DNA of 64,000 nucleotides from an uncultured delta proteobacterium (GTDB lineage: Bacteria > Desulfobacterota > Desulfobacteria > Desulfobacterales > B30-G6): positions 1,888,001-1,952,000 of the forward strand of contig CAWGLD010000001.1 of the NCBI GenBank assembly GCA_963823335.1. The letters run 5' to 3'. Both the position numbers and the translations under genes were made by a program. The notes beneath the pieces were generated by a model, which was not told where the DNA came from, did no database searches, and worked only from the letters and a program-made list of their open reading frames with translations. Of this stretch, positions 11,145 to 28,378 are shown one piece after another. Each line of letters opens with the position of its first letter. The first letter of the stretch is position 1.

Positions 11145-11263
11145 CCCAGCAATGTACCATAGCCGCTCAAGCAATTTCGGAACCAAAGGATTTGCATCAA
11201 ATGACTTGATATGATATTTGGTTCTTCTCCAAAAAGACAGTGCAACCCAGAAAGGATATCCGT

Positions 11264-12184
11264 ATGGGCAAGGTCATCCTAACAGCAGCGATTACCGGAG
11301 GGATTCATACGCCAAGCATGTCTCCCCATCTTCCGATTACACCCCAGCAGATCGTTGACGATGCGGTGGGTGCCTGGCAAGCTGGCGCCGCCATTGTCCA
11401 CATCCACGCCCGTGACCCGGAAACCGGCAAACCGTCATCCGATACAAGGCTGTTTGGAGAAATTATTTCCCAAATCAAGACCCGATCCGATCTCGTGGTT
11501 TGTATTACCACTGGCGGTGGGTTGGGTCAGACAACTGAGGAGCGGGTTGCCGCGGTCAAGGCATACAGCCCGGAACTTGCATCACTCAATGCGGGATCTC
11601 TCAACTTTGCCCTTTTTCATGCCCTGGATGCTTACAAAGAATTCAAACATGATTGGGAAAACACATATCTGAATATGACGGAAGATTATATTTTCCCAAA
11701 CACGTTCAGGACATTGCGAGAATTTAATCAGCACTTCAGCAAGGAAGGCACAAAACCCGAGTTTGAGGTCTATGATGTCGGGATGATAAACAACCTGGCA
11801 TTTCTTATTGAAAAGGGTCATGTTAAAAAACCGGTATATATCCAGTTTGTGATGGGGATTCTGGGTGGTATTCCGGCTACGATGAATAATCTGCAATTTC
11901 TGTACAATACCGCCAGGGATGCCATCGGGGATTTTCAGTGGTCGGTGTGTGCTGCCGGAAAACACCAGTTCAGAATGTGTACCGGTGCCCTGCTTATGGG
12001 AGGCAATGCAAGGGTGGGGCTCGAGGACAATCTTTTCCTGGAGAAGGGTGTGAAGGCCAAAAGCAGTGCCGAACAAGTGGCGAAGATCGTTCGAATCGCC
12101 AGGGAACTGGGTGTCGAGCCGGCAACACCTGACGAGGCGCGTCAACTGTTGCATCTCAAAGGACTGGATAAGGTCCGGTTCTAG
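11264..12184 (+). CDS. Beta-keto acid cleavage enzyme (3-keto-5-aminohexanoate cleavage family, DUF849)
   Basis: ILTAAITG, GAAIVHIHARDP, TTGG, RVGLEDN, ATPDEAR motifs. Confidence 0.92.
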   Translation: MGKVILTAAITGGIHTPSMSPHLPITPQQIVDDAVGAWQAGAAIVHIHARDPETGKPSSDTRLFGEIISQIKTRSDLVVCITTGGGLGQTTEERVAAVKAYSPELASLNAGSLNFALFHALDAYKEFKHDWENTYLNMTEDYIFPNTFRTLREFNQHFSKEGTKPEFEVYDVGMINNLAFLIEKGHVKKPVYIQFVMGILGGIPATMNNLQFLYNTARDAIGDFQWSVCAAGKHQFRMCTGALLMGGNARVGLEDNLFLEKGVKAKSSAEQVAKIVRIARELGVEPATPDEARQLLHLKGLDKVRF

Positions 12185-12222
12185 GCCGTGCTAGGTATAG
12201 ATAAATATTGAAAGGAGTGATC

Positions 12223-14178
<1,956 letters not shown>

Positions 14179-14199
14179 AACCTATCTTTAAAGTATCTT

Positions 14200-15145
14200 T
14201 TGCCCAATCGTTCTCCTGTATCTGCGAATAATCTTGTGGGTATTCGTCCAAGCATTGGACTCGTAAGTCGTAATGGAATCATCCCCTATTCCTTTACCCA
14301 GGACACGGCAGGACCCATCTGCAGGACGGTTGAGGATGCTGTGCGCGTGTTGGATGTGATTGCGGGGTATGATCAAGCAGATGACGAAACAGCCTGGTCC
14401 ATCAATCGAAAACCAATATCTTATATGGGGTGTTTGAAAGAGGATGGACTTAAAGAGAAACGCATTGGTGTCCTGGAAAGTTTCTTTGGTATGGATGCTA
14501 TTCATAAAGATACGAACAAGGCTGTGAAAAGCAGTATTGAGACCATGCAAAAACAAGGTGCCGAGATGGTATCTTTAAACGGCAGAGATTGATTCCGACC
14601 ATCTTGTCAATGACGTCAGTGTTCACCTGCACGATCTTAAAGATCATCTGAACGTTTACCTGGGAGATCTTCCAGAGCAGGCTTGCGTCCATTCGGTTGA
14701 AGAAATTCTGGTGTCAGGTAAATACCATGCAGGTATCGAAGAAAACTTGAAGAAGGCAATGGTTTTAAGTACCGGGACAGCGGAGTACAATAAACGACTT
14801 GTCGAAAGAAATAAGCTTCAAACCCGGGTTATGAAACTGATTGCCGATTACCAGTTGGATGCACTGGTTTATCCACATCAAAAGCAGTTGGTATGCAAGG
14901 TTGGTGGAAGCCAAAATGAGCGCAATGGGGTTTTAGGCTCTGTAACGGGATTTCCGTCAATCTGTGTTCAGGCCGGCTTTTCAACCCCTTCGGAAACAGC
15001 ACCCATTGGTGTACCCATCGGCATGGAAATTTTAGGGCGACCTTTCAGTGAAGCAACGCTCATCGAAATCGCCTATGGTTTTGAACAGGCAACACACCAC
15101 CGTAAGCCACCATTAAGTGTGCCACCACTTGGCGGCAAAACTTGA
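14200..15145 (+). pseudogene. Amidase-signature family remnant (N-terminally truncated, frameshift near 14590)
   Basis: Begins at RSPVSANNLVGIRPSIGLVSR and ends ...PIGMEILGRPFSEATLIEIAYGFEQAT; catalytic Lys and GGSS region absent. Confidence 0.8.
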
Positions 15146-15158
15146 TCATAAAGGAACA

Positions 15159-16769
15159 ATGATGAATTCAATTCGCGATAATCACAACGCAAACAAGGTT
15201 GTTGTGCCGCAGGATGCAAAAAAACTGCTCCTGTCGGTTATTCGGTCCGGTGACCGGGTCGTTCTGGAGGGAAACAATCAGAAACAGGCCTTGTTTCTTT
15301 CAAAACAGCTGGTGGATTTGTCCGCATCGGATATCAAGGATCTGCATATCCTGATGTCGTCGGTAACCCTGGACGAGCACCTGGATCTTTTCCGAAAGGG
15401 GATTGCTTCCAGACTCGACTTTGCCTTTTCAGGACAGCAGGCGGTGCCCCTGGCAAAGCTTGTTCAGGACGGAAGGGTTGTTATCGGGTCGATTCATACC
15501 TATTCCGAGCTGTTTAGCCGCTATTTTACGGATCTGACACCCAATGTCGCATTGGTTTGCGCGGAAACGGCAGATGCCCAAGGCAATTTATACACCGCTG
15601 GCAATTCAGAGGAGACACCGGTTTTGTGCGAAGCGACTCATTTTGGTAAGGGGATCGTCATTGCCCAGGTCACAAAAATAGTGGAAAAGGTGCCGCGTGT
15701 GGATATTCCCGGAGATCAGATCGACTTCGTGATCCCCACGGGTGAGCCCAACCAGATTCAGGCTCTCTTTACCAGGGATCCCGCCCATCTCACCACGACC
15801 CATGTGCTCATGGCACTGATGGTAATAAAAGGTATCTACGCCGAGTACGGGGTCCAGTGTCTGAATCATGGCATCGGCTATGCAACGGCAGCCATTGAAC
15901 TCCTTTTACCGACCTTTGCCATGGACCTCGGTCTTAAGAGAAAGATCTGCTCCCACTGGGCCCTCAACCCCCACCCCACGTTAATTCCCGCCATCGAGTC
16001 CGGTATGGTGAAATCCATCTATTCTTTTGGAAGCGAGCCGGGAATGGACGACTACATTGCAGCAAGAAAAGACATTTTTTTTACTTCCCCGGACGGTGTG
16101 CTCAAGTCGAGCCGCTGCCTGGCTCAGCTTGTCGGATATTACGATTGCGAGTGTTTTGTCGGCGCAACGCTCCAGATCGATCCCGACGGTAACAGCTCGA
16201 CAGCCATAAGCGGACGCATCAGCGGGTTCGGGGGAGCGCCCAACCTGGGGTCGAACGCAACCGGCCGCCGTCACGTTACGCCTGCCTGGTTAAAAGTGGG
16301 CCAGGAAATTTCTGCTGCCGGTGGTAGTGGAAAGATTAAACGTGGCCACAAGCTGATCGTGCAGCTCACGCCGACTGTCAGTGCCAAAAAGGACATTCCG
16401 GTCTTTGTAAAATACCTGGATGCCACCCTGATGGCCGATCAGGGCTTGTTCGAGCTTCCTCCGGTGATGATTTATGGAGATGACATCACCCATATCGTCA
16501 CGGAGAAAGGAATTGCCTACCTGTGCCGGTGCGGTAGTCTCGAAGAACGCCGCGCCGCTATTCGTGCCATAGCCGGCCGGACGCCTGTGGGAGAAGAAGA
16601 GGTTGCTTCAGAAACGGAGGCACTCCGGAAAAAAAGAGCCGTGGCCTACCCCGAGGACCTGAACATTCAAGCTGAAATGGTGTCGAGGGACATGCTTGCG
16701 GCAAAGAACATGCAGGACCTTGTGGATATCTCGGGAGAGCTTTACCGACCACCCCGGAAGTTTCTATGA
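15159..16769 (+). CDS. mdcA: Malonate decarboxylase alpha subunit (acetyl-S-ACP:malonate ACP transferase family)
   Basis: GDRVVLEGNNQKQA, IHTY.EL..RYF.DLTP, LNHGIG, LNPHPTLIP, GFGGAPN, PVMIYGDD. Confidence 0.9.
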   Translation: MMNSIRDNHNANKVVVPQDAKKLLLSVIRSGDRVVLEGNNQKQALFLSKQLVDLSASDIKDLHILMSSVTLDEHLDLFRKGIASRLDFAFSGQQAVPLAKLVQDGRVVIGSIHTYSELFSRYFTDLTPNVALVCAETADAQGNLYTAGNSEETPVLCEATHFGKGIVIAQVTKIVEKVPRVDIPGDQIDFVIPTGEPNQIQALFTRDPAHLTTTHVLMALMVIKGIYAEYGVQCLNHGIGYATAAIELLLPTFAMDLGLKRKICSHWALNPHPTLIPAIESGMVKSIYSFGSEPGMDDYIAARKDIFFTSPDGVLKSSRCLAQLVGYYDCECFVGATLQIDPDGNSSTAISGRISGFGGAPNLGSNATGRRHVTPAWLKVGQEISAAGGSGKIKRGHKLIVQLTPTVSAKKDIPVFVKYLDATLMADQGLFELPPVMIYGDDITHIVTEKGIAYLCRCGSLEERRAAIRAIAGRTPVGEEEVASETEALRKKRAVAYPEDLNIQAEMVSRDMLAAKNMQDLVDISGELYRPPRKFL

Positions 16770-16811
16770 GTAGCGAATAGCCATCCGTACAACGATGTAT
16801 GTATATTTATC

Positions 16812-16840
16812 TTGACATACCATCTCCGATTATATATTAT
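16812..16840 (+). promoter_or_regulatory. Sigma-70-type promoter about 280 nt upstream of the acidic protein/kamA cluster
   Basis: TTGACA-N17-TATTAT. Confidence 0.55.
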
Positions 16841-17123
16841 CCGCCGTCCAAAATGAGTGATGCCGTTGTAACCTTGAGCTCTTTTTATTAATTTGCCAAT
16901 TATATTAAACTGTTATGTTTTTTCTGGCGTGGCGAATGACCGGTTCCGAAGTTGCCGGTTTCTTAAAAGGAACTTGGGGTTTGTTGGTTTTGGGATAAAT
17001 TGCCAGTATATATAATTAAAACAGAATGTTAAATTAAAACAGTCGCTATGCTATCAATTTGCAGAAAAAATCAACGCCGTTGGTTTGTGGACGGGCAGGA
17101 AACTGGTCGAGCAGGGAGGTTAT

Positions 17124-17471
17124 ATGAGAAAGGGGCATAAAACTGACACCATCATCGGTTATGTGGGCGAGACGGAAGATGACGATAGTATCAGACTGAC
17201 GATATTTGCGGAAGAAGAGGACTATCTGGTCGAGATGAACAAGCAGGGAAAGAAACTGCTGCAAGTGTTGGATTCCGAAGTCAAGGCTACCGGGGAAATT
17301 GAGCAGGACAGCGATGGCAGAAACGTGATTTGCATCACGAAATTCGAGATAATCGATGACGATTATACCGATGAAAATTTTGACGATGAAAATTACGATG
17401 ATGACGATGACGATTTCGATGACGGTGATGCCGATGATTACAACGACCATGGGGACGATTGGATCGAATGA
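17124..17471 (+). CDS. Small hypothetical protein with an Asp-rich C-terminal tail
   Basis: GGAGGT SD before ATG; globular N-terminal ~75 aa followed by DDDYTDENFDDENYDDDDDDFDDGDADDYNDHGDDWIE. Confidence 0.8.
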   Translation: MRKGHKTDTIIGYVGETEDDDSIRLTIFAEEEDYLVEMNKQGKKLLQVLDSEVKATGEIEQDSDGRNVICITKFEIIDDDYTDENFDDENYDDDDDDFDDGDADDYNDHGDDWIE

Positions 17472-17710
17472 CGGTTTCCCGCAAAAATCCTGTGATAACG
17501 GGTAGATACTCATGGATAAATATCTTGGCAAACCGTCTCGATTGCAGAAATTAAAAAAATGTTTTGTTGTATTGAAAAAAAACCTTGTATTGTACCTTTG
17601 TATGATTACTCTTGCGCATTACACCCTTGCTTGAAAGATCTTGCCGATTTGTTTTCGAAGCAAGGTATAACGTTGTTCAACAAGGAATTTATTCCGAAAG
17701 AGGTTGAAAA

Positions 17711-19024
17711 ATGATACAGCAAATTACGGTCAGACCAAAAGAACGTCATACCGTTCCAAGTCAAGTTCCTCTTGCGGATGTTGAAGAGGAACCTCCAAGC
17801 CAGTGCCTTCCTTCTTTCTCCGCTCCAACCACTTTCCAACAATTATATCAAGATATTGAAACAAATAAAATCTTGTCTTTCCCCCAGTTCAAAACCGGTT
17901 TTTCCCCTGGGCGAACGCAGTTCAGACGAAAGTTCTTTCCTGGAATATCGACCAAGCAGTGGAACGACTGGCACTGGCAGGTGAGCCATCGAATCCGCAC
18001 CGAAGCCCAACTCAAAGAAATGCTGATCCTGTCTGAGGACGAGGCGCTTGCCCTAACACAGAGGCAGGCTAAATTACCTTTGGGTATTACGCCTTACTAC
18101 ATGAGCCTGGTAGCCCGGGACAATCCCATGCAAGCATTGCGGCGAACCGTCATTCCGACCTGGCAGGAAAATCTGCAGATGCCGGGGGAGGCGGACGACC
18201 CCCTTGGTGAGGAATCCCAGAGCCCGGTTCCCGGTCTGATTCACCGTTATCCGGACCGTGTGCTGCTGCTGCTGTCCGATTTTTGTTCTACCTACTGCCG
18301 GTATTGTACCCGCTCGCGCATGGTGGGGCATGGGGGAGTGACCCCCAGCCGGTCCCGCTTGGAGCGTGCTTTCGACTATATTCGGTCTAAACCTTTGGTT
18401 CGGGACGTACTCCTGTCCGGGGGTGATCCCTTACTGCTCAGTGACGAGCGACTGGCCTGGATCCTTTCACGTCTGCGCCAGATTCCGCATGTGGAGATCG
18501 TGAGGATCGGGACTAAAGTTCCGGCGGTACTGCCCCAGCGGATCACACCTCAACTGGTGCGCATACTGCGACGCTATCATCCTTTGTGGATGAGCCTGCA
18601 TTTTACCCATCCCGATGAATGCACGGCAGAGTCTTACAGGGCGTGCACACAGCTTGCCGACGGCGGTATTCCTCTGGGCTCCCAAACGGTACTTCTCAAA
18701 GGGATCAATGATGACGTGCAGATCATGACCCAGCTGGTGCATCATTTGATGAAAATGCGCGTGCGTCCCTATTATCTCTATCAGTGCGACCCCATCACAG
18801 GCTCGTCTCATTTCCGGACACCGTTGGAAAAAGGGATTGAGATTATCCGTGGAATGCGTGGTTTTACGACCGGCTATGCGATTCCAACATTTGTGGTGGA
18901 TGCTCCCGGCGGTGGCGGCAAGATTCCGCTGATGCCTGATTACATGAGTGGCCGGGATGATGACGGGTTTATTTTGAAGAACTACGAAAACAGGCTGTAT
19001 CATTATCCGGACTGCTCTGCATAA
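17711..19024 (+). CDS. kamA: KamA family radical SAM enzyme, lysine 2,3-aminomutase type
   Basis: HRYPDR, CSTYCRYCTR radical SAM motif, SGGDP, YQCD, VDAPGGGGKIP PLP-lysine motif. Confidence 0.92.
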   Translation: MIQQITVRPKERHTVPSQVPLADVEEEPPSQCLPSFSAPTTFQQLYQDIETNKILSFPQFKTGFSPGRTQFRRKFFPGISTKQWNDWHWQVSHRIRTEAQLKEMLILSEDEALALTQRQAKLPLGITPYYMSLVARDNPMQALRRTVIPTWQENLQMPGEADDPLGEESQSPVPGLIHRYPDRVLLLLSDFCSTYCRYCTRSRMVGHGGVTPSRSRLERAFDYIRSKPLVRDVLLSGGDPLLLSDERLAWILSRLRQIPHVEIVRIGTKVPAVLPQRITPQLVRILRRYHPLWMSLHFTHPDECTAESYRACTQLADGGIPLGSQTVLLKGINDDVQIMTQLVHHLMKMRVRPYYLYQCDPITGSSHFRTPLEKGIEIIRGMRGFTTGYAIPTFVVDAPGGGGKIPLMPDYMSGRDDDGFILKNYENRLYHYPDCSA

Positions 19025-19102
19025 GGAAAGTGACGCTGATTTTCACCCGGCTGTCTGTAGGGTTGGATTGTTTTGGCATTTTGACTGAGGAGAAATTGTT
19101 CG

Positions 19103-20101
19103 ATGGGTATGACAATTGGATTGACCTACGATTTGCGGTCCGAGTATCTGGCCATGGGTTTCAGTGAGGATGAAACAGCCGAGTTCGATCGGGACGACAC
19201 CATTGAAGCGATCGAGTCGGCTCTCCAGACCCTGGGTCACCGGACAGAGAGGGTGGGAAACGCAAAGCAGCTGGCGGCGGCCCTGGTGGAGAAGCGGCGC
19301 TGGGACATGGTTTTCAACATTGCCGAAGGATTGCACGGTATAGGACGTGAGGCGCAGGTGCCGGCTTTGCTGGATCTTTACGAGATTCCCTATACCTTTT
19401 CAGACCCGCTTGTCATGTCTCTGTCCCTGCACAAGGGAATGACCAAACATGTTGTACGCGATGCCGGTGTGCCAACGTCCGATTTTATCGTGGTGGCGTC
19501 TGTTCAAGATGCCGGAGCCATTTCGTTTGATCCGCCTTATTTTGTAAAGCCCGTGGCCGAAGGCACCGGCAAAGGTGTGTCGCCAGAATCCATCGTCCAG
19601 GAGCGGGAGGATCTGCCGGAAGTGTGCAAACGGTTGATCACGGCTTACGGCCAGCCCGTTCTTGTGGAATCCTTTCTACCCGGACGGGAGTTTACCGTAG
19701 CCATCCTGGGTACCGGCCGCAAAGCGTCGTCCCTGGGAACCATGGAAGTTCATCTTTTATCCAAGGCAGAGCAGGGCATCTATTCCTATGTGAACAAGAA
19801 GCTTTGGGAAGATCGGGTTAAATATGAATTGGTGCTTCCTGATGCGGACTCTGTTGTGGCCGAAGCAGAAGATGTGGCCCTCGAGGCCTGGCGGGTCTTG
19901 GGATGCCGGGATGCCGGCCGCGTGGATATCCGATGTGACCAACAGGGTGCGGCCATGTTTATAGAAGTCAATCCTTTGGCCGGCATTCACCCCAACCACT
20001 CGGATCTTCCCATCATCTGCAACCTGCAGGGGATCCCCTATGTCAATCTAATCGAGCGTATTGTCGCCTCGGCGGCACACCGTATGCGGACGGTTTCCTG
20101 A
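19103..20101 (+). CDS. D-Ala-D-Ala ligase-like ATP-grasp enzyme 1
   Basis: VFNIAEG..GREAQVPALLD..IPYTFSD, KPVAEGTGKG, LPGREFT, GRVDIR, EVNPLAG. Confidence 0.85.
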   Translation: MGMTIGLTYDLRSEYLAMGFSEDETAEFDRDDTIEAIESALQTLGHRTERVGNAKQLAAALVEKRRWDMVFNIAEGLHGIGREAQVPALLDLYEIPYTFSDPLVMSLSLHKGMTKHVVRDAGVPTSDFIVVASVQDAGAISFDPPYFVKPVAEGTGKGVSPESIVQEREDLPEVCKRLITAYGQPVLVESFLPGREFTVAILGTGRKASSLGTMEVHLLSKAEQGIYSYVNKKLWEDRVKYELVLPDADSVVAEAEDVALEAWRVLGCRDAGRVDIRCDQQGAAMFIEVNPLAGIHPNHSDLPIICNLQGIPYVNLIERIVASAAHRMRTVS

Positions 20102-21111
20102 TGCAGGTTGCTGTGGTCCACAACGCCGTTGACGAATCTGACGGACCGGACGCAAAGGACGTGCTTACACAGGTGGAAACCGTTTGTGATGCCCTGGGGG
20201 TTCTGGGCCATGACACCGAAACCATTGCCTGTACTTTAGACCTTGACCGATTTCAACGGGTCCTCACGCTAATATCTCCGGATGTCGTCTTTAACCTGGT
20301 GGAATCCCTGGCTGGAACAGGACGTCTCATTCATCTGGCCCCATTTGCGATGGATGCCATGGGTCTGCCCTATACCGGATCGAGCGCCGAACAGATTTTC
20401 ATGACATCCAACAAGGTGATGGCCAAGCATCACATGCTCGTGCAAGGCCTACCCACCCCAGTCTGGCTGGGGCCGTATCCGGAGGGCTCCCTGGGAAAAT
20501 ACCCGGTGGAGGCCGACGGAATCTGCGAGGAGACCTGGATCATCAAATCCGTGTGGGAACATGCCTCCATCGGTCTCGATGAAACCAATATCGTGAAGGG
20601 AGAAGACAAAACCAAGCTATTGTCGCTTTTAAGGCTTCGGGCCGGGAGTTTAGGTGGTTCCTGTTTTGCCGAGCGATTCGTCGATGGACGTGAATTCAAT
20701 CTTTCGCTTCTTGGCGGCAGAGCCGAAAACCCCGTGGTGCTGCCGCCTGCTGAAATTGTTTTTGAGGATTACGGCCAGGAAAAACTCCGCATCGTGGACT
20801 ATCAGGCCAAGTGGGATGAGACGTCTTTCGCCTATCAACACACCCCCAGACGGTTTGACTTCGACCCTGACGATGACCACCTGTTAGAAACCCTCAAGGG
20901 CTTGGCAAAGAAATGCTGGATCGGTTTTGGATTGAGGGGATATGCCCGGGTTGACTTTCGTGTCGATCCAGCCGGGAATCCGTGGATATTAGAGATCAAT
21001 GCAAACCCATGCCTGTCGCCGGATGCAGGCTTTGCTGCAGCCCTGGCGCAAGGGGGGCTGGCATTTTCCGAGTCGATACGGTATATTTTAGAAGATGTCC
21101 CGATATATTAG
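20101..21111 (+). CDS. D-Ala-D-Ala ligase-like ATP-grasp enzyme 2
   Basis: VFNLVES, PYTGS, KSVWEHASIG, DGREFN, YARVDFR, EINANPCL; TGATG stop/start overlap with enzyme 1. Confidence 0.85.
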   Translation: MQVAVVHNAVDESDGPDAKDVLTQVETVCDALGVLGHDTETIACTLDLDRFQRVLTLISPDVVFNLVESLAGTGRLIHLAPFAMDAMGLPYTGSSAEQIFMTSNKVMAKHHMLVQGLPTPVWLGPYPEGSLGKYPVEADGICEETWIIKSVWEHASIGLDETNIVKGEDKTKLLSLLRLRAGSLGGSCFAERFVDGREFNLSLLGGRAENPVVLPPAEIVFEDYGQEKLRIVDYQAKWDETSFAYQHTPRRFDFDPDDDHLLETLKGLAKKCWIGFGLRGYARVDFRVDPAGNPWILEINANPCLSPDAGFAAALAQGGLAFSESIRYILEDVPIY

Positions 21112-21348
21112 CCCCCATGATTGAAGAACCTGATCAACGCTGGCGCTATCATTTCAGCCTGAAGTCGCAGTTTCGCGGGTAGAGACTTATTGGGTCTCTT
21201 AACCAAAAGTTTATATATTTGGATCATCCCCTAAAGAGTTGAACCCTTTTTCCCAACTAATTGGGAGAGGGTTTATGCATTTTGTGATAAAAGATCTTTC
21301 TCCTTTCCGGTTTATCCGGGTTGGAAATTGCCAAGAGGTTTATAAACA

Positions 21349-23601
21349 ATGCTTCGAATTCGTCGTATCTATGATGATGCCCTGCCGATAAACAAGGAAA
21401 TTATCAGGAAGGTCCGTGAGATCCTGAAAAGCCGTTTTAAAGATGTTCCTGAAAATGAGATTGATAATCTGGGCGAAAATTTGCGCAATCCCTTTAAGAA
21501 GAGGTTTTGTACCAGTCTTTTCGTGGCGGAAACTCTGAAGGGAAAGGTACAAGGTTTTGCCACCCTTCTGCATGAACCGGAGATCGGGTTTGTCTTTCTG
21601 GACTGGATCGCCATGGCGAGCGGCAAGGGCGGCGGAGGGGTCGGAGGTGCTTTGTATGAACGGGTTCGTCAGGAAGCGGCGGCCCTACATGCAAGCGGAC
21701 TTTTTTTTGAATGCCTCCCTGATGAGCCTCAAGACTGCCCCCAGGACGACCTCCTGAAGCAAAACCGTTCCCGCCTGCGGTTCTATGAGCGTTATGGTGC
21801 ACGGCCCATTATCCGCACCGGTTACGAAACAGCGGTGAATCCAGACGACACATGCATGCCCTACCTGGTTTATGACGGTCTCGATCGGCAGCACCCCCTG
21901 AGGCGGGCTTTTGTCAGGAAAGTTGTGCGGGCCATTTTGGAACGGAAATATGCCGATCTTTGCCCACAGGCATATGTAAATCGGGTCGTCGCATCTTTCA
22001 AAGACGACCCAATCCAGATCCGGGATTTTCGTTATGTGAAACCGGAGGCGATCAAGACAACCGTGGAGAGCCATTCCCTGGAGCAGGTTGCCCTGGTGAT
22101 CAACGAGCAGCATGTCATTCATCATGTTCATGAGAGGGGTTATGTAGAATCTCCCGTGCGGGTTCGCAGTATCTTGAAAGAGCTGGCACTGGGGGGCTAT
22201 TGTGCGCAGATCAAACCGAGACATTTCGGGGACAAGTATATTTATGCCGTTCACGACACCGATTTTGTCAATTACCTTCGACGCGCCTGTGCCGAAATGG
22301 AAGAGGGTAAATCGCTATACCCCTATATTTTCCCCATACGGAACAAGACCCGGCCGCCAAAAGAACCTTCGGTGCTTTCCGGGTATTACTGCATCGACAC
22401 ATTTACACCCATCAACAAAAATGCCTATCCCGCAGCCAGGGGGGCGGTGGACTGCGCTCTGACGGCGACCAGGGAAATCCTGAGTGGCAGACGGATTGCT
22501 TACGCGTTGATACGACCGCCAGGGCATCATGCCGAGCGGCGGGCCTTTGGAGGTTTTTGTTATTTTAACAACAATGCCATTGCGGCCCAACACCTGAGCG
22601 CTTACGGCAAGGTCGCCATTTTGGATGTGGACTACCATCACGGGAATGGCCAACAGGAGATTTTCTACCGACGCTCCGATGTGCTGACCGCATCCATTCA
22701 CGGTCACCCGGCATTTGCCTATCCTTATTTCAGCGGCTTTGAAGATGAAAAGGGGGAAGGGGAGGGCGAAGGTTTCAACATGAACCTGCCCTTGTCTGAA
22801 AAGACCGGTGGTGTTCAATACCGAAAGGCCCTGGAAAAGGCCCTCAGACGAATCAGTGTGTTTGGTCCACAGTTCCTCGTTGTGGCCCTGGGTCTTGATA
22901 CGGCCAAGGGGGACCCCACAGGAACCTGGAGCCTTTCACCGAAGGACTTTGAGGAAAACGGTCGATTGATCGGCGGCATGGGTCTTCCCATCGTGGTCAT
23001 TCAGGAAGGGGGCTATCGCATTGCGACTTTAGGGAAAAATGCGCGGCGATTTTTTAAGGGCCTGGTAGAGGCCAGTGCCAGCTGGGATACCAGCAGCCCC
23101 GCGGCCAAGGCGGTACCACTCGGTGTCGAGTTTCGTAATGAGCTTAACACCGGTGACGCGAAACGGATCCATGATCTCGTTCAGGTCACCGGCTATTTTT
23201 CTGATGAAGAAGTGTCTGTGGCTGAGGAGCTGGTGACGGAACGCTTAGCCAAGGGACCGGAGAGTGGTTACAATTTCTTGCTGGCGGAACAGTACGGCCG
23301 ACTCATCGGCTACACCTGCTACGGCATGATTCCAGGTACCACAGGCAGTTATGATTTGTACTGGATCGCCGTGCATCCTGATTTTCACCGGCATGGGATC
23401 GGCCGACGTTTGATTGATAAAACCGAAAGCAGCATCAAGGAGACTGGCGGCACCCGAATTTATGTGGACACTTCTCAAAGGGTTCAGTATGCCAGCACCC
23501 GGGCCTTTTACGAAAGCTGCAGGTATCGGTTGGAATCTGTCCTGGCAGACTTTTATGCTCCCGGAGATGGAAAGGCTATATACTGCAAAGAGCTGGTCTA
23601 A
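21349..23601 (+). CDS. GNAT - histone deacetylase/acetylpolyamine amidohydrolase family - GNAT fusion protein
   Basis: N-terminal GNAT-like region (GKGGGGVGGALY, RLRFYERYG); deacetylase motifs RPPGHHA, GFCYFNN, DVDYHHGNG, GLD, QEGGY; C-terminal GNAT (YWIAVHPDFHRHGIG, TRAFY). Confidence 0.9.
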   Translation: MLRIRRIYDDALPINKEIIRKVREILKSRFKDVPENEIDNLGENLRNPFKKRFCTSLFVAETLKGKVQGFATLLHEPEIGFVFLDWIAMASGKGGGGVGGALYERVRQEAAALHASGLFFECLPDEPQDCPQDDLLKQNRSRLRFYERYGARPIIRTGYETAVNPDDTCMPYLVYDGLDRQHPLRRAFVRKVVRAILERKYADLCPQAYVNRVVASFKDDPIQIRDFRYVKPEAIKTTVESHSLEQVALVINEQHVIHHVHERGYVESPVRVRSILKELALGGYCAQIKPRHFGDKYIYAVHDTDFVNYLRRACAEMEEGKSLYPYIFPIRNKTRPPKEPSVLSGYYCIDTFTPINKNAYPAARGAVDCALTATREILSGRRIAYALIRPPGHHAERRAFGGFCYFNNNAIAAQHLSAYGKVAILDVDYHHGNGQQEIFYRRSDVLTASIHGHPAFAYPYFSGFEDEKGEGEGEGFNMNLPLSEKTGGVQYRKALEKALRRISVFGPQFLVVALGLDTAKGDPTGTWSLSPKDFEENGRLIGGMGLPIVVIQEGGYRIATLGKNARRFFKGLVEASASWDTSSPAAKAVPLGVEFRNELNTGDAKRIHDLVQVTGYFSDEEVSVAEELVTERLAKGPESGYNFLLAEQYGRLIGYTCYGMIPGTTGSYDLYWIAVHPDFHRHGIGRRLIDKTESSIKETGGTRIYVDTSQRVQYASTRAFYESCRYRLESVLADFYAPGDGKAIYCKELV

Positions 23602-23775
23602 ACTTGATCCGGTCCTGTTGCCGATACCACATTATGAGACATAATCATCTTGACAACCCCTCAGCACCTTTCTATATCATATCCATATCATAACAAATCG
23701 ATCCAAAATGACGCCACCAGGGAAAATGCACAGAATCCTTGCCGGTCAGCCGGCGTGTGCCAAAGGGGGCAGTTT

Positions 23776-25329
23776 ATGGAAAGTGTTAGAGCCGACGAGC
23801 AATATTTACTGCTCAAAGTGGCTGTGGTCGCCAGAGGCTACCGCGCGCTGTCTGTGATGCGAATGCTCAGCGAAATCAAACCGGGCAGGCTGCGCTTGCA
23901 GCTGGTGGCGATTGCCACGGTCAATAAATCCATTGCCTGCTCCAAATTCGCCGGTGACGTGGGTGTAGCGGTTTATGACGATCCCATGGATCTGCTGGCT
24001 GTGGAGCACCTGGATTTGATTCTCGAGATGACCGGAGACGCACAGACACTGGCCCGCATAGTCACGAACAAGCCACCTTCCATCGGCATATTGGACCGTC
24101 AGGCGTCAATGCTCATTTTCGATATCGCCGGGTTGTACCAACAGGTATCAGCACGTGAATCAGAAATCAGCCTGGCTTCCTCCTTTGCTTCCGCGTTGTT
24201 GGAGGCTTCGCCGGACGGGGTTATGGTCCTTGACCGCGACTATCGGATTATCAATTGCAATGAATCACCCATCATCACCGGCGGAAAAGGACGAGAATTC
24301 GCCCTTGGAAGATCTTGCTTTGACCTGATCCATAATTTCAGAGACGTATGTAGTAACCAAGAGCTGAGATGTCCGATGGAGGAAGTGCTCAAGACCGGTC
24401 GACCAGCCCGGACAGTTCACGAGACCCAACCGGGCAGCCCGGATACCCGGGTCCACCAATCCACAGCCTACCCATTGACCAACTCCGTTGGTGAGATCGT
24501 ACAAATCGTGGTCTCTATCCGGGACATTACCCAGGAATTGACGGACAGGGTAGAACAACGCACCCAGGTCATCAAAAATGATCTTGTACAGTTTGTACGT
24601 GAAGATCGCCTGGCCTCTCTCGGTCGGCTTGTGGCTTCCGTATGCCATGAAATCAACAATCCCATTGCCAGTATCCTGACATTCAACAAGCTCATCTTAC
24701 GCTGTATTCAGGAAGACGAGTTGCCGGAGGAAGGTATGCAAGCCTTCAGCCACTATCTGGATATCTGTGTCCGGGAGGCCCTGCGCTGTGGTCAGATCGT
24801 CAAAAATCTGCTTACTTTTGCCAGACAAAAAAACATCGAACTCATTCAGATCGACCTGAAAGAAATGATTGATACCATACTGGTCCTCACGGGTCATCAA
24901 TTGGAAATGAACGGTATTGCCTATGATCTGAATCTGCCGGAAACATCCTTCATTGCAAAAGGAGATTATACCCAGATTCAACAGTGCCTGATGAATCTCA
25001 TTTTCAATGCCATGGAGTCTATGACGGACGGTGGAACATTGACCTTGGCGGGCGGACAGGACCGTAAAATGAAAACAGTCTGGGTGACCGTGGCCGACAC
25101 CGGCTACGGGATTGATCCGGAAGACCTGCCCCGTATTTTCGAGCCTTTCTATACCACCAAAAAAGAAGGTAAAGGTGTCGGGCTTGGACTGTCAATGGTA
25201 TATGGAATTATCCGCGAACACCAAGGGACCGTTGAAGTCCAAAGCGAACCAGGCCAGGGATCCCTGTTCAAACTCACCTTGCCCGCTGGTGTTGAAGCCC
25301 TTCAGGAAACCAAAGGAGAAGACACATGA
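23776..25329 (+). CDS. Cytoplasmic PAS-domain histidine kinase with an N-terminal Rossmann-like domain
   Basis: KVAVVARG N-terminus; PAS (SPDGVMVLD..IINCN); HEINNP H-box; DTGYG and GVGLGL boxes. Confidence 0.9.
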   Translation: MESVRADEQYLLLKVAVVARGYRALSVMRMLSEIKPGRLRLQLVAIATVNKSIACSKFAGDVGVAVYDDPMDLLAVEHLDLILEMTGDAQTLARIVTNKPPSIGILDRQASMLIFDIAGLYQQVSARESEISLASSFASALLEASPDGVMVLDRDYRIINCNESPIITGGKGREFALGRSCFDLIHNFRDVCSNQELRCPMEEVLKTGRPARTVHETQPGSPDTRVHQSTAYPLTNSVGEIVQIVVSIRDITQELTDRVEQRTQVIKNDLVQFVREDRLASLGRLVASVCHEINNPIASILTFNKLILRCIQEDELPEEGMQAFSHYLDICVREALRCGQIVKNLLTFARQKNIELIQIDLKEMIDTILVLTGHQLEMNGIAYDLNLPETSFIAKGDYTQIQQCLMNLIFNAMESMTDGGTLTLAGGQDRKMKTVWVTVADTGYGIDPEDLPRIFEPFYTTKKEGKGVGLGLSMVYGIIREHQGTVEVQSEPGQGSLFKLTLPAGVEALQETKGEDT

Positions 25330-26678
25330 TACAATCGATGCGGATACTCATTGTGGATGACGAGGAGCCGATTCGCGAGGCTTTGGGTGCCTGGCTTGTC
25401 AAAGATGGATATCAGGTCGACACAGCCGATTCAGGACAGACGGCCTTGGTGTGTATTGAAAAAGGCTTGTTTGATCTGTATCTGGTGGACATTAAGATGC
25501 CGGGGATGGGCGGGATCGAGCTCCTCGGGAGGATCAAGGAAATTCAAGCGGATGCCAACGTCATTATGATCACCGCTCACGGGTCTATCCAGACAGCTGT
25601 GGAAGCCATGAAACGCGGTGCCTGCGATTATATCTGCAAACCTTTTGATCCGGACGAACTGTCTTTGATGACTGAACGGGTGTCGGCCAACCAGGCTCTG
25701 AAAAATGAAAACCTGGTGTTGCGTGAACAGCTCATGGAGCAGCAGGAAACCTCTTTTGAGGGTATCGTGGTGGCCTCTGATGCGCTGCAGGAGGTGTTCA
25801 ACAGTCTGGTGGAGGTGGCACCGTCGTCGGCACCGGTGCTTATCACCGGCGAAACAGGTGTAGGCAAAGAGATGGTGGCCCGGGCAATTCACATGCAGAG
25901 CGGCAATGCCTATGGACCCTTTGTTGCCATCAACTGCGGTGCTCAATCTGAAACGCTTCTGGAGAGCGAGCTCTTCGGTCATGAACGTGGCGCGTTTACA
26001 GGCGCAGTCAAAGCCCGCCGGGGAAGATTGGAAATGGCCAACAACGGAACCCTGTTTCTGGACGAAATCGGGGAGATTTCACCAAAAATGCAGATCAGTC
26101 TGTTGCGTGTTCTGGAAGAAAAACGTTTTCAGCGGCTTGGGGGGAGTCAGGAGATCAGTTCGAGTTTCCGACTGATATGTGCGACACATCGCAATCTCCC
26201 TCAGCTGATCAAAGAGGATCAGTTCCGCGAGGACTTCTATTATCGCATCAATGTTATCTCCATCGACATTCCTCCCTTGCGTGAGCGACTGGCTGACGTC
26301 CCGGTGCTTGCTGATCACTTTCTTGTTCAATTTGTCCAGGAAACAGGCAAACGCCTGGAAGGGTGGACCCAACGGGCCATCGGGATGTTGATGGCTTATC
26401 ACTGGCCGGGAAATGTCCGTGAGTTGCGCAACGTGGTGGAAAGGGCTGTGGTGCTTGCCCGGGGTCGAATGATCGGTGCCGATGAGCTCTCGTTTCTTCA
26501 GCCCGGTAAAGATGATTGCCATTTCGGGACCATGACCCTCAAAGAAGTGGAGGTCAGTCATCTAAAGATCGCTCTGGACGCTACGGGCTGGAACATTTCA
26601 AGAGCTGCAGAGCAGTTGGACATCGACCGGGGCACGCTGGCCAGAAAAATAAAACGTTACCAACTGACCAGGACCTAA
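25326..26678 (+). CDS. Sigma-54-dependent response regulator (NtrC family)
   Basis: REC domain, [29 protein letters not shown] overlap with the kinase. Confidence 0.95.
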
Positions 26679-26838: not shown

Positions 26839-27408
26839 GTGAATGATTTGGCCAGTGATCAAGCGAAATCCAAAACCAGGGCCCTCATCGATTTAATCCC
26901 GCTTGGACGTGTCGATCAGCTGGCAGTTTCCATCGTAGCGGCAAATCTGCAGGCCATCCTCGGTTTGAACAGCAATGTTTCAGAGCCCAGGCAGGATCCG
27001 GAATACGCATTGCTGCCACAAAGGAAGCAGTTCGATGCTCTGAAAATTATTAAAGAACTTTCCAGAGAAACACACGGGGCTCCGTTCAAACTGGGTGTAA
27101 CGGCCCTCGACATCTGTACGCCTATCCTTACGTTTGTCTACGGTGAATCGCAGCTTGGAGGGAACATCGCGCTGATTTCCCTGAATCGGCTTGAGGGGGA
27201 TCGTGCTGAGTTGGCATATGAACGGGTGGTAAAAATCGGTGTTCATGAAGTCGGACATATACTGGGACTGGAGCACTGCTGGGAAGTCCGGTGTCTGATG
27301 CATTTCAGCCGCAATCTCGAGCAGCTCGATTCCCTGCCGCTGCAATTCTGTTCTGCCTGTGAATTTGAAACCACCCGGCGCATCAAGTCTTTGAACGGCA
27401 GGTGCTAA
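26839..27408 (+). CDS. Archaemetzincin family Zn-dependent metalloprotease (M54)
   Basis: RKQFDA, FVYGE, HEVGHILGLEHC, CLM Met-turn, FCSAC Cys4 site. Confidence 0.9.
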   Translation: MNDLASDQAKSKTRALIDLIPLGRVDQLAVSIVAANLQAILGLNSNVSEPRQDPEYALLPQRKQFDALKIIKELSRETHGAPFKLGVTALDICTPILTFVYGESQLGGNIALISLNRLEGDRAELAYERVVKIGVHEVGHILGLEHCWEVRCLMHFSRNLEQLDSLPLQFCSACEFETTRRIKSLNGRC

Positions 27409-27466
27409 CCCCGAAGGTTGCAGCGGAGTTAGCGAGTGAATCTGATTATAAAATCGTTCTGTGATT

Positions 27467-28378
27467 TTATTTGAGGAACGTTTTTACCAGACGATCCCAG
27501 CCGATTTCGGGCACCGCTCCATAGATATCGTCGATTGCCTCACCACCGGTTGCTGCCATCCGGTAGTCTCCCCCCTCGTCCAGCAGGGTGGTCAGTCGTG
27601 ATGCTTCGTCATCGGTCCACGCCAGGCTTTCAACGCCGAACAAGAGGTTCTTGAGACTCTTACGAAGATTGTTCGGCTGAACAACCATGAGCCACCCTTC
27701 AGCGTAGGGAGACGTATTGACGTCTTTGGAATTGCCGCTAATTCTCGGGTTAACCGCAACCACCGTACCATCCAGAGGACTCAGTGTTTCAGCTTCGTTG
27801 TTTCCTCTGACCATTGTGGCTTGGGGTCTGTTTTGTTCCATGGATGCTCCGAGCCGCGGAAGCTTGATTTCATCCTGGGGGCCGAGCAATCTCAGAGCAA
27901 AATCGTCGATTCCCACCCGGACCCGACCACCATATTCAACGCGCGCCCAGGTATGACCGTAATGGTAGTAGTGATCCCTGGCGACAGAAAAGCCGGATAC
28001 GTGATCACAGACCGGTGGTGTCAGAGCAGGCATCACGGCTCCGTCTTCTATCATCTGGTCGTAAGGGCATTTTACACAATTGTAATTGTGGGCACACATT
28101 TTATAATCCACCCGACCGCTCAACATGTGCCGGCATTTTCCCTGGTTTTCCAGCAAACCCATTCGAGGCGTGCGGAAGTCAGCCCTTGAACGTCCGGCCG
28201 CATTTTCCCTGGCCTGGAAATCCGCCTGAACTTTCTGATCGAAGGCACAGCCGAGGCAATCAAAAGCATTGATGCACATCAAGGACTTCACCACACCTGC
28301 TTTAGCCCAGACACACTGATTGTTTGAGAGACCGAAAACATTTGGGCGTCCGGCTTTTTTTCTAGTGTTCTCAACCAT
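27467..28378 (-). CDS. Glycine cleavage H-protein-like protein with two N-terminal Cys-rich repeats
   Basis: YHYGHTWAR..VRVGIDDFA, SPLDGTVVAVN, SPYAEGW; two CX12CX5CX2C repeats; AAGGAGG SD. Confidence 0.85.
   Translation of the reverse strand: MVENTRKKAGRPNVFGLSNNQCVWAKAGVVKSLMCINAFDCLGCAFDQKVQADFQARENAAGRSRADFRTPRMGLLENQGKCRHMLSGRVDYKMCAHNYNCVKCPYDQMIEDGAVMPALTPPVCDHVSGFSVARDHYYHYGHTWARVEYGGRVRVGIDDFALRLLGPQDEIKLPRLGASMEQNRPQATMVRGNNEAETLSPLDGTVVAVNPRISGNSKDVNTSPYAEGWLMVVQPNNLRKSLKNLLFGVESLAWTDDEASRLTTLLDEGGDYRMAATGGEAIDDIYGAVPEIGWDRLVKTFLK

Follow-up and report, generated by a model that had tools for sequence, protein, structure and literature searches.

What might a bacterium make from beta-lysine when a lysine 2,3-aminomutase is encoded beside two ligases and an acetyltransferase? 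Beta-lysine is known from three settings: lysine fermentation, modification of elongation factor P (EF-P) and one osmolyte. The question is raised by a locus of an uncultured delta proteobacterium (GCA_963823335.1, contig CAWGLD010000001.1), analysed in a window, meaning the whole stretch of DNA examined, of 64,000 nucleotides (1,888,001–1,952,000 of the forward strand). At 17711–23601 of the window, four co-oriented genes lie on the plus strand. The first encodes KamA, a 437-residue radical S-adenosylmethionine (SAM)/pyridoxal phosphate (PLP) enzyme of the lysine 2,3-aminomutase type (17711..19024, +; Pfam Radical_SAM and LAM_C). It is followed by two Ddl-like ATP-grasp ligases, AG1 (332 residues; 19103..20101, +) and AG2 (336 residues; 20101..21111, +), both with Pfam Dala_Dala_lig_C, and by a 750-residue GNAT/deacetylase/GNAT fusion protein (21349..23601, +; Pfam Hist_deacetyl and Acetyltransf_1). 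The sequence GAGGAG precedes the AG1 start, and the AG1 stop overlaps the AG2 start in TGATG. The gene layout given by an earlier, sequence-only reading of the locus was confirmed. We conclude that the cassette likely makes an acetylated beta-lysine compound. With moderate confidence we lean towards a route from lysine to beta-lysine and then, by two ATP-dependent amide bonds, to a small cationic peptide or amide whose amine would be neutralised by acetylation. A full-text literature search, with subscription journals outside its coverage, found no paper describing the cassette.

The first step is the one most closely tied to a solved enzyme. KamA residues 72–432 align with the Clostridium lysine 2,3-aminomutase (PDB 2A5H) at 468 bits, with retention of D293 (in YQCD), D330 (in VVDAPGGGGK), K337 and a CxxxCxxC motif. 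We take D293 and D330 to be the binders of the lysine ε-amine, K337 to be the PLP lysine and CxxxCxxC to be the radical SAM cluster motif. That KamA keeps the lysine-binding aspartates of YQCD and VDAPGGGGK had been proposed beforehand, and the alignment bore it out. Among NCBIfam models the best match is AblA (TIGR03820) with 480.5 bits, under the equivalog cut-off of 525.4; its score on the KamA subfamily model TIGR00238, 344.8, exceeds the cut-off of 199.2.

AG1, the better conserved of the two ligases, shares 25–29% identity with AG2, and for each of them Ddl is the top match by family and by structure. Pfam Dala_Dala_lig_C scores 92.6 bits for AG1 and 59.3 bits for AG2, and the closest solved structures are Ddl enzymes, at 80 and 51 bits. 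In common with the Ddl/VanA family, both have a full-length ATP-grasp fold, the ATP- and Mg-binding residues and R-x-D. The ATP-grasp lysines, R-x-D and the Mg-binding E-x-N show little or no variation across 49 AG1 and 48 AG2 sequences. The invariant residues K111, K149, E189, R273, D275, E288 and N290 of AG1 are compatible with ATP-grasp catalysis; those of AG2 are K149, E191, R283, D285 and N300. The family matches are what speaks for the plainest alternative, in which both ligases are surplus enzymes of cell-wall synthesis that make D-Ala-D-Ala (or D-Ala-D-X) and lie beside KamA by coincidence. We give this alternative almost no credence, for several reasons. On the NCBIfam Ddl subfamily model, AG1 and AG2 reach 164.4 and 83.8 bits, far under the cut-off of 243, whereas a true Ddl on the same contig as the cassette scores 349 bits. 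In an alignment of 22 sequences (6 canonical Ddl, 8 AG1 and 8 AG2), the N-terminal LSGGxSxE motif of Ddl is missing from AG1 and AG2, as the sequence-only reading had observed. In place of the omega-loop K-Y of Ddl, AG1 has N-K-E/K and AG2 has A-K-W; in place of the TSL stretch they have HSDLP and PDAGF, respectively. Presumably the GGxSxE motif of Ddl binds the amine of the first D-Ala, K-Y and S-L are substrate residues, and the TSL stretch binds the carboxylate.

The same separation was found in a quick maximum-likelihood tree of 47 rows, comprising every third row of the AG1 and AG2 alignments and 14 paralogues from relatives. AG1 and AG2 each form a clade of their own (SH-aLRT 100 and 96), apart from a canonical Ddl clade (99) that includes the genome's own Ddl; one long-branch paralogue groups with AG2 (support 89). 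Thus the family scores, the tree and the motif alignment agree in setting the ligases apart from canonical Ddl. AG1 and AG2 differ from the Ddl/VanA family further in their identity of about 25–30% and in their pairing with KamA. The recurrence of KamA and GNAT beside or fused to the ligases across phyla, described below, also argues against spare Ddl enzymes, as does the dispensability assigned to all four counterpart genes in the supplementary tables for Desulfovibrio alaskensis G20. A third Ddl-like ATP-grasp gene occurs elsewhere in the genome (G000:C6, locus L108:180-3432; 80.5 bits to the Ddl model), beyond a racemase-like gene and a gene weakly resembling the lasso-peptide epimerase MslH; its relatives form their own clade in the tree.

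The fusion protein comprises three domains. The N-terminal domain (residues 1–254; 21349..22110, +) is a putative divergent GNAT whose Pfam GNAT scores are sub-threshold (20.6 against 27 and 17.4 against 20.7), and a profile search of it against the PDB gave weak GNAT matches only. Its AlphaFold model, built from a 21-sequence alignment, has a pLDDT of 86.3 and a pTM of 0.85. Foldseek returned 266 PDB chains at E ≤ 0.001 and places the model among GNAT folds; the highest-ranking chain is a GCN5 histone acetyltransferase (HAT) domain, and the match to the fold has an E of 1.4e-6 and a TM to target of 0.75. The central domain (residues 266–571; 22144..23061, +) resembles acetylpolyamine amidohydrolase (APAH). 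Pfam Hist_deacetyl scores 259.8 bits on the fusion against a cut-off of 27.9, and the best solved relative is the APAH 6PHR (252 bits, E 8e-74), with 3Q9B at 228 bits. Aligned to 6PHR, the domain contains PPGHHA, DVDYHHGNG, LGLDT and EGGY, which we take to be the zinc and catalytic motifs of the Hist_deacetyl/APAH class. These HDAC-type motifs are common to APAH and the cassette domain, which differs in sitting between two GNAT domains and in being tied to a beta-lysine cassette. The C-terminal GNAT domain (residues 618–750; 23200..23601, +) scores 62.1 bits on Pfam Acetyltransf_1 (cut-off 20.7) and matches PDB 2R7H with an E of 5e-37. No match of the fusion protein to TIGR03827 (GNAT_ablB) was found at E ≤ 0.01. 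The sequence-only reading had proposed an undescribed pathway of beta-lysine ligation and acetylation with a small peptide, a polyamide or a modified protein as its product. The proposal is supported in part: the pathway holds to the extent that computation can show, but modification of a protein is argued against by the deacetylase, which is closest to a small-molecule acetylpolyamine amidohydrolase.

To what extent do these genes belong together? In an order-level survey of 41 genomes, AG1 orthologues (E ≤ 1e-80) were patchy, occurring in 14 of the 41 and in 3 of 10 genomes of the genus. A wider survey of GTDB species representatives returned 441 stretches with relatives, and the best 80 of these 441 underlie the locus counts and the tblastn gene orders given here. 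They come from Desulfobacterales, Syntrophales/Smithella, Bacteroidales, Acidobacteriota, Planctomycetota and Bdellovibrionota, and further from Alphaproteobacteria, Krumholzibacteria, Spirochaetales and Acidimicrobiia. Two of the 80 are from isolates, Desulfosarcina cetonica and Virgifigura deserti. KamA lies directly 5′ of AG1 in 78 of the 80 loci, AG2 is downstream in 76 and a GNAT follows AG2 in 65. The arrangement is far beyond chance, and in other genomes 78 of 80 loci repeat the gene order. The commonest order is KamA-AG1-AG2-GNAT (41/80 loci), followed by KamA-AG1-AG2 with N-terminal-type GNAT (N-GNAT), deacetylase and GNAT, as in the window (17/80). Seven loci have KamA-AG1-AG2, six have KamA-AG1-AG2-GNAT followed by N-GNAT and deacetylase, and three have KamA-AG1-AG2 with N-GNAT, which in one of them (L093) stands alone. 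KamA-AG1 only was found in four loci and an order without KamA in two. In two of the KamA-AG1-only loci (L067 and L085) the sequence stops within about 600 bases of AG1; the other two (L042 and L100) have room downstream, yet gave no match there at E ≤ 1e-8. From this tally, KamA, AG1, AG2 and the C-terminal-type GNAT make up the conserved core, and N-GNAT with the deacetylase is accessory, in 23 of 80 loci. The earlier expectation that the genes co-occur in other genomes, and across phyla, was thus upheld; the GNAT-deacetylase-GNAT protein is present here as described, but it is not a conserved unit, with only its C-terminal GNAT in the core.

Apart from cassette genes, no neighbours conserved beyond single lineages were found among the surveyed loci. 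Within some lineages the cassette carries additional genes. A 116-residue DUF486/DMT_6 membrane protein is encoded between AG2 and GNAT in L068 (10025-10375) and in 10 other Smithella-clade loci, 11 in total, and a Desulfobacterales contig has a CitMHS-family transporter and an IF-2B-family gene within the cassette (L030:10127-11434). At L026 (G037:C56, 5029-8280), AG1 is cut to about 70 codons (query residues 3–69) with KamA, AG2 and GNAT intact; this cassette is possibly decaying.

Natural fusions bear on how the enzymes may cooperate. Reading frames checked over the 80 loci showed in-frame fusion of N-GNAT to deacetylase in 23 of 23 loci, of deacetylase to GNAT in 14 of 17 and of AG2 to GNAT in 6 of 48; no fusion was found of KamA to AG1 (0/78) or of AG1 to AG2 (0/76), and an apparent AG1-AG2 fusion in L056 was rejected as a high-GC open-frame artefact. 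A large protein collection, for proteins of 582–2000 residues, gave 1032 matches at E ≤ 1e-40. Among the 120 matches listed of these 1032, 13 have a KamA Pfam domain, 2 have GNAT and 105 are ATP-grasp only. By BLASTP, P0029 combines AG1 and AG2 in one protein, its AG2 half being 42% identical to AG2; P0059 combines AG1, AG2 and GNAT; and P0074 combines KamA and AG1, its KamA half being 63% identical to KamA. Each adjacent pair of the pathway is therefore fused somewhere, which speaks for a single pathway in which both ligases cooperate closely. The KamA-AG1 fusions suggest that AG1 takes beta-lysine directly, and the AG1-AG2 fusions suggest that both ligases work together; they are also what speaks for the heterodimeric ligase that the sequence-only reading had put forward as possible. 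The mechanism that we propose accordingly has three steps: KamA would produce beta-lysine, AG1 and AG2 would each form one kind of amide bond, and the GNAT would acetylate the product. In this genome, the second GNAT and the amidohydrolase-like domain may serve to remove the acetyl group for turnover or re-use; the accessory amidohydrolase is closest to small-aliphatic-amine deacetylases, and would make the acetylation reversible.

Two unlike ligases could also alternate to build a beta-lysine polyamide. Cyanophycin synthetase, for comparison, uses two active sites. By such cyanophycin-like logic the polymer would be a nitrogen store or a cationic agent, with acetylation capping it or tuning its charge. 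We consider a polymer quite improbable. The pairing of two distinct ligases that appear catalytically intact from their residues, sometimes in one polypeptide, is what alternation would need, and an unacetylated polycation would account for the toxicity in GNAT mutants (below). However, Pfam gave neither ligase a primer-binding or other additional domain, no exporter or depolymerase is conserved among the neighbours of the surveyed loci, and the deacetylase is of a type that acts on small-molecule polyamines.

The cassette has a counterpart in a cultured organism for which mutant data exist. By its entry title, PDB 2R7H, the structure matched by the C-terminal GNAT, is DDE_3044 of Desulfovibrio G20, and judged by this GNAT match, the annotations and the gene spacing, the cassette probably corresponds to Dde_3041–3044 of D. 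alaskensis G20. In the supplementary tables of Kuehl et al. 2014 (PMC4045070), these four genes are consecutive on the plus strand and annotated as an aminomutase (Dde_3041), a D-alanine--D-alanine ligase (Dde_3042, begin 3033768), a Ddl-domain protein (Dde_3043, begin 3034819) and a GCN5-like acetyltransferase (Dde_3044, begin 3035859), with a spacing that matches the window protein sizes. All four are classed there as 'Dispensable' and have archived insertions. Fitness, as log2(end/start) over 82 conditions, is given in Data Sheets 1–3 of Price et al. 2014 (PMC4215793). Each of the three strain measurements for Dde_3044 was lowest, among the 82 conditions, in 800 mM NaCl (chip 492), at −1.00, −1.63 and −1.29; a second NaCl experiment (chip 440) gave −0.57, −0.77 and −0.97, and the next-worst conditions were 'pH' and pH 6.0, at −0.73 to −1.02 (PMC4215793). 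In the two NaCl conditions the means of 'good' insertions were −0.15/−0.24 for Dde_3041, −0.08/−0.08 for Dde_3042 and −0.06/−0.02 for Dde_3043, with an 'edge' insertion in Dde_3043 at −0.39/−0.50 (PMC4215793). The NaCl medium is listed as lactate/sulfate MO basal with vitamins, a defined medium, its undefined-nutrients entry being empty (PMC4215793).

In these data sheets, then, only GNAT mutants are impaired among Dde_3041–3044, and aminomutase and ligase mutants are neutral. A last enzyme that is needed when the earlier ones are not is the pattern expected of a harmful intermediate. We therefore read the GNAT-only defect as the mark of a harmful unacetylated intermediate, and not of a compound that is indispensable as an osmolyte; with an earlier block in the pathway nothing accumulates, hence the neutral aminomutase and ligase mutants. 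A cationic beta-lysine amide or peptide, with a free amine that the GNAT neutralises, would be consistent with the pattern. The pathway would be active under salt and acid stress, its unacetylated product would be harmful and acetylation would be a detoxifying last step. Locus tags Dde_3041–3046 appear in no main text of the searched literature, with subscription journals outside its coverage, these genes have no entry in the supplements of PMC6052904 and PMC4001038, and for D. vulgaris Hildenborough the gene table of PMC10102598 shows no lysine aminomutase.

The salt phenotype also raises the question of a compatible solute, and two known systems frame it. The AblA/AblB pathway to N-ε-acetyl-beta-lysine, of methanogens and some bacteria, has in common with the cassette a lysine 2,3-aminomutase with the lysine-binding aspartates and a GNAT in one operon, together with a link to salt. 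It differs in that the cassette adds two obligatory ATP-grasp ligases, has a GNAT outside the AblB family and a KamA under the AblA equivalog cut-off, and, in the G20 data sheets, shows no salt defect in the aminomutase mutant. Ngg, the GNAT and ATP-grasp enzyme of N-acetylglutaminylglutamine amide synthesis, follows a logic that the cassette would share: a small peptide is joined by an ATP-grasp ligase and N-acetylated by an acetyltransferase, and both activities can reside in one polypeptide. The cassette differs in its ATP-grasp subfamily, its two ligases, its beta-lysine from a dedicated radical SAM enzyme and its lack of an amidotransferase partner.

By analogy with the Ngg product, a di- or tripeptide of beta-lysine, acetylated and zwitterionic or neutral, might serve as a compatible solute needed at high osmolarity, with the deacetylase recycling it after down-shock. 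We regard this as unlikely. In its favour, AblAB, the nearest known beta-lysine pathway, yields an osmolyte (PMC3543383), this DNA occurs in marine sediment, estuary and aquatic metagenomes, the G20 GNAT mutants fare worst at 800 mM NaCl in the data sheets, and a CitMHS-type ion transporter lies within the cassette of L030. But in those same sheets 800 mM NaCl in defined medium leaves G20 mutants of the aminomutase and ligases unaffected, many hosts are labelled as metagenome-assembled genomes (MAGs) from lake, soil or digester, and no Rfam family matched in 16500–24000, so that no riboswitch was found there. A true AblB is also already in the genome: on contig 4, TIGR03827 scores 316.3 bits against a cut-off of 205.1. 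Since this AblB lies beside an 827-residue KamA-like gene, away from the cassette, the known osmolyte route may exist separately. The AblB locus (G000 contig 4, about 207800–211300; L109:2328-5770, minus strand) adjoins this gene, which encodes a divergent KamA-like radical SAM protein, and an Amidohydro_3 gene is nearby; this could be another locus for the acetylation of beta-amino acids, distinct from the cassette.

A beta-lysine-modified protein, the remaining alternative, could arise in two ways: through the C-terminal Glu of an upstream acidic, LysW-like carrier, or by KamA feeding EpmA and EF-P. LysW-type carriers have a conserved C-terminal acidic motif ending in Glu, linkage to a ligase and zinc-ribbon cysteines. 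The candidate here is a 115-residue acidic protein with the C-terminus GDDWIE (17124..17471, +), a genus-level neighbour that is not part of the cassette. In three genomes of the genus the tails read DDWIE, DDWIE and GDWNE, with D-W-x-E kept, and are reminiscent of that of LysW; a contig from an RNA library (X11 record 1, 17096–17986) links the acidic open reading frame (ORF) with kamA. However, the acidic protein adjoins the cassette only in its own genus and, in divergent orientation, in L055, and has unlinked homologues elsewhere that lack a C-terminal DWxE. Its sequence is without zinc-ribbon cysteines, and it has no Pfam match. As a LysW-like carrier and a general part of the cassette it was rejected, the tail motif being genus-only and homologues elsewhere unlinked. 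The length of the tail varies, with six extra bases (TGACGA) after 17380 in X11 record 1.

For the EF-P route, an EpmA/GenX homologue (G000:C1:1132565-1133428, about 770 kb before the window) scores 314 bits against a cut-off of 286.9, and KamA-family genes of the genome are limited to the cassette KamA and the 827-residue form. No EpmB-like gene was found in G000, G001 and G005, the three cassette-bearing genomes of the genus, and EpmB-like genes near epmA were seen within the genus in G006 and G008 only. KamA may have a side role in EF-P modification. On the other hand, EpmA occurs in 35 of the 41 relatives and the cassette in 14, KamA is naturally fused to AG1, and the nearest relatives of the deacetylase are small-molecule amidohydrolases. 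Overall we hold a protein target to be very improbable. The sequence-only reading had noted that the partner genes of lysine fermentation and EF-P modification are absent; they are absent at the locus, but the EpmA homologue is present elsewhere in the genome. A search for lysine 5,6-aminomutase (PF09043) gave no match here and none in control genomes either, and is thus uninformative.

Several points weigh against the route to a small acetylated beta-lysine peptide or amide. The chemical steps after KamA, and the order AG1, AG2, GNAT, are ones that we infer. The G20 orthology rests on the match of the GNAT to 2R7H, the annotations and the gene spacing, and the fitness effects are moderate (log2 −0.6 to −1.6), come from two NaCl experiments and are not discussed by the authors. 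The GNAT could act in some other role, independent of the cassette, and the neutrality of the upstream mutants is subject to possible polarity of the insertions. On the same data sheets, kamA and ligase mutants are neutral at 800 mM NaCl, which makes it less likely that G20 needs the product for salt tolerance. The separate true AblB means that beta-lysine acetylation is not unique to the cassette. Lastly, contigs from RNA libraries span the gene junctions, but cannot prove transcription or a single transcript, because DNA carry-over is possible.

Sequencing runs with this DNA come from metagenomes of marine sediment, estuary, aquatic, sediment and soil origin, and six estuary RNA libraries contain 20–41% of its words. 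Contigs from four RNA libraries, 95–99% alike, span the junctions; besides the contig from the acidic ORF to kamA, they run from kamA to AG1 (X11 record 2, 18900–19795), from AG1 to AG2 (X12 record 11, 19673–21033) and from the fusion gene to a kinase gene (X11 record 4, 22222–23918). No RNA-library contig covers 16000–16767, which is not evidence of silence. A near-consensus sigma-70-like site, TTGACA-17-TATTAT, lies at 16812–16840. No sigma-54 promoter match was found 5′ of kamA, and the 39 matches window-wide compare with 36 expected by chance. A PAS histidine kinase and a sigma-54 response regulator (23650..26678, +) follow the cassette; a kinase and regulator 3′ of the cassette were found in L013/L027 and L014/L028 only, that is, within the genus.

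Further from the cassette, the region 11240–16769 (+) of the window looks like a separate catabolic set and not like lysine fermentation. The best match of its BKACE gene is 3,5-dioxohexanoate:acetyl-CoA acetone transferase (426.7 bits against a cut-off of 430) and not the lysine-fermentation Kce. Downstream of it come genes for an AMP-forming ligase and for a CoA transferase that resembles malonate decarboxylase alpha (760 bits against 789). Short ORFs at 14200–14592 and 14711–15145 (+) match positions 156–274 and 337–444 of the 445 of Pfam Amidase, and look like a broken amidase gene between an acetyl-CoA-synthetase-like gene and an MdcA-like one. On the other side, an archaemetzincin-family metalloprotease is encoded at 26839–27408 (131.5 bits against a cut-off of 145), and a minus-strand 303-residue protein in the region 26839–28378 has a GcvH-like domain limited to residues 131–246.

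If the cassette makes the compound that we favour, it would represent a fourth, widespread use of beta-lysine, with two dedicated ligases, and a further metabolite in sulfate reducers, syntrophs, Bacteroidales and many uncultured lineages. More tentatively, it is possible that the cassette is a route, independent of non-ribosomal peptide synthetases (NRPS) and spread over more than 10 phyla, to a new class of beta-lysine peptides, intrinsically toxic polycations that are caged by acetylation and, where the amidohydrolase is present, uncaged on demand; we entertain this as a speculative extension. If true, a small stress metabolite or antimicrobial would be switched reversibly by its acetyl group. 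With the archived transposon mutants in all four genes and the GNAT-specific salt and acid phenotype recorded in the published supplements, and the GNAT structure 2R7H, D. alaskensis G20 makes the question directly testable.

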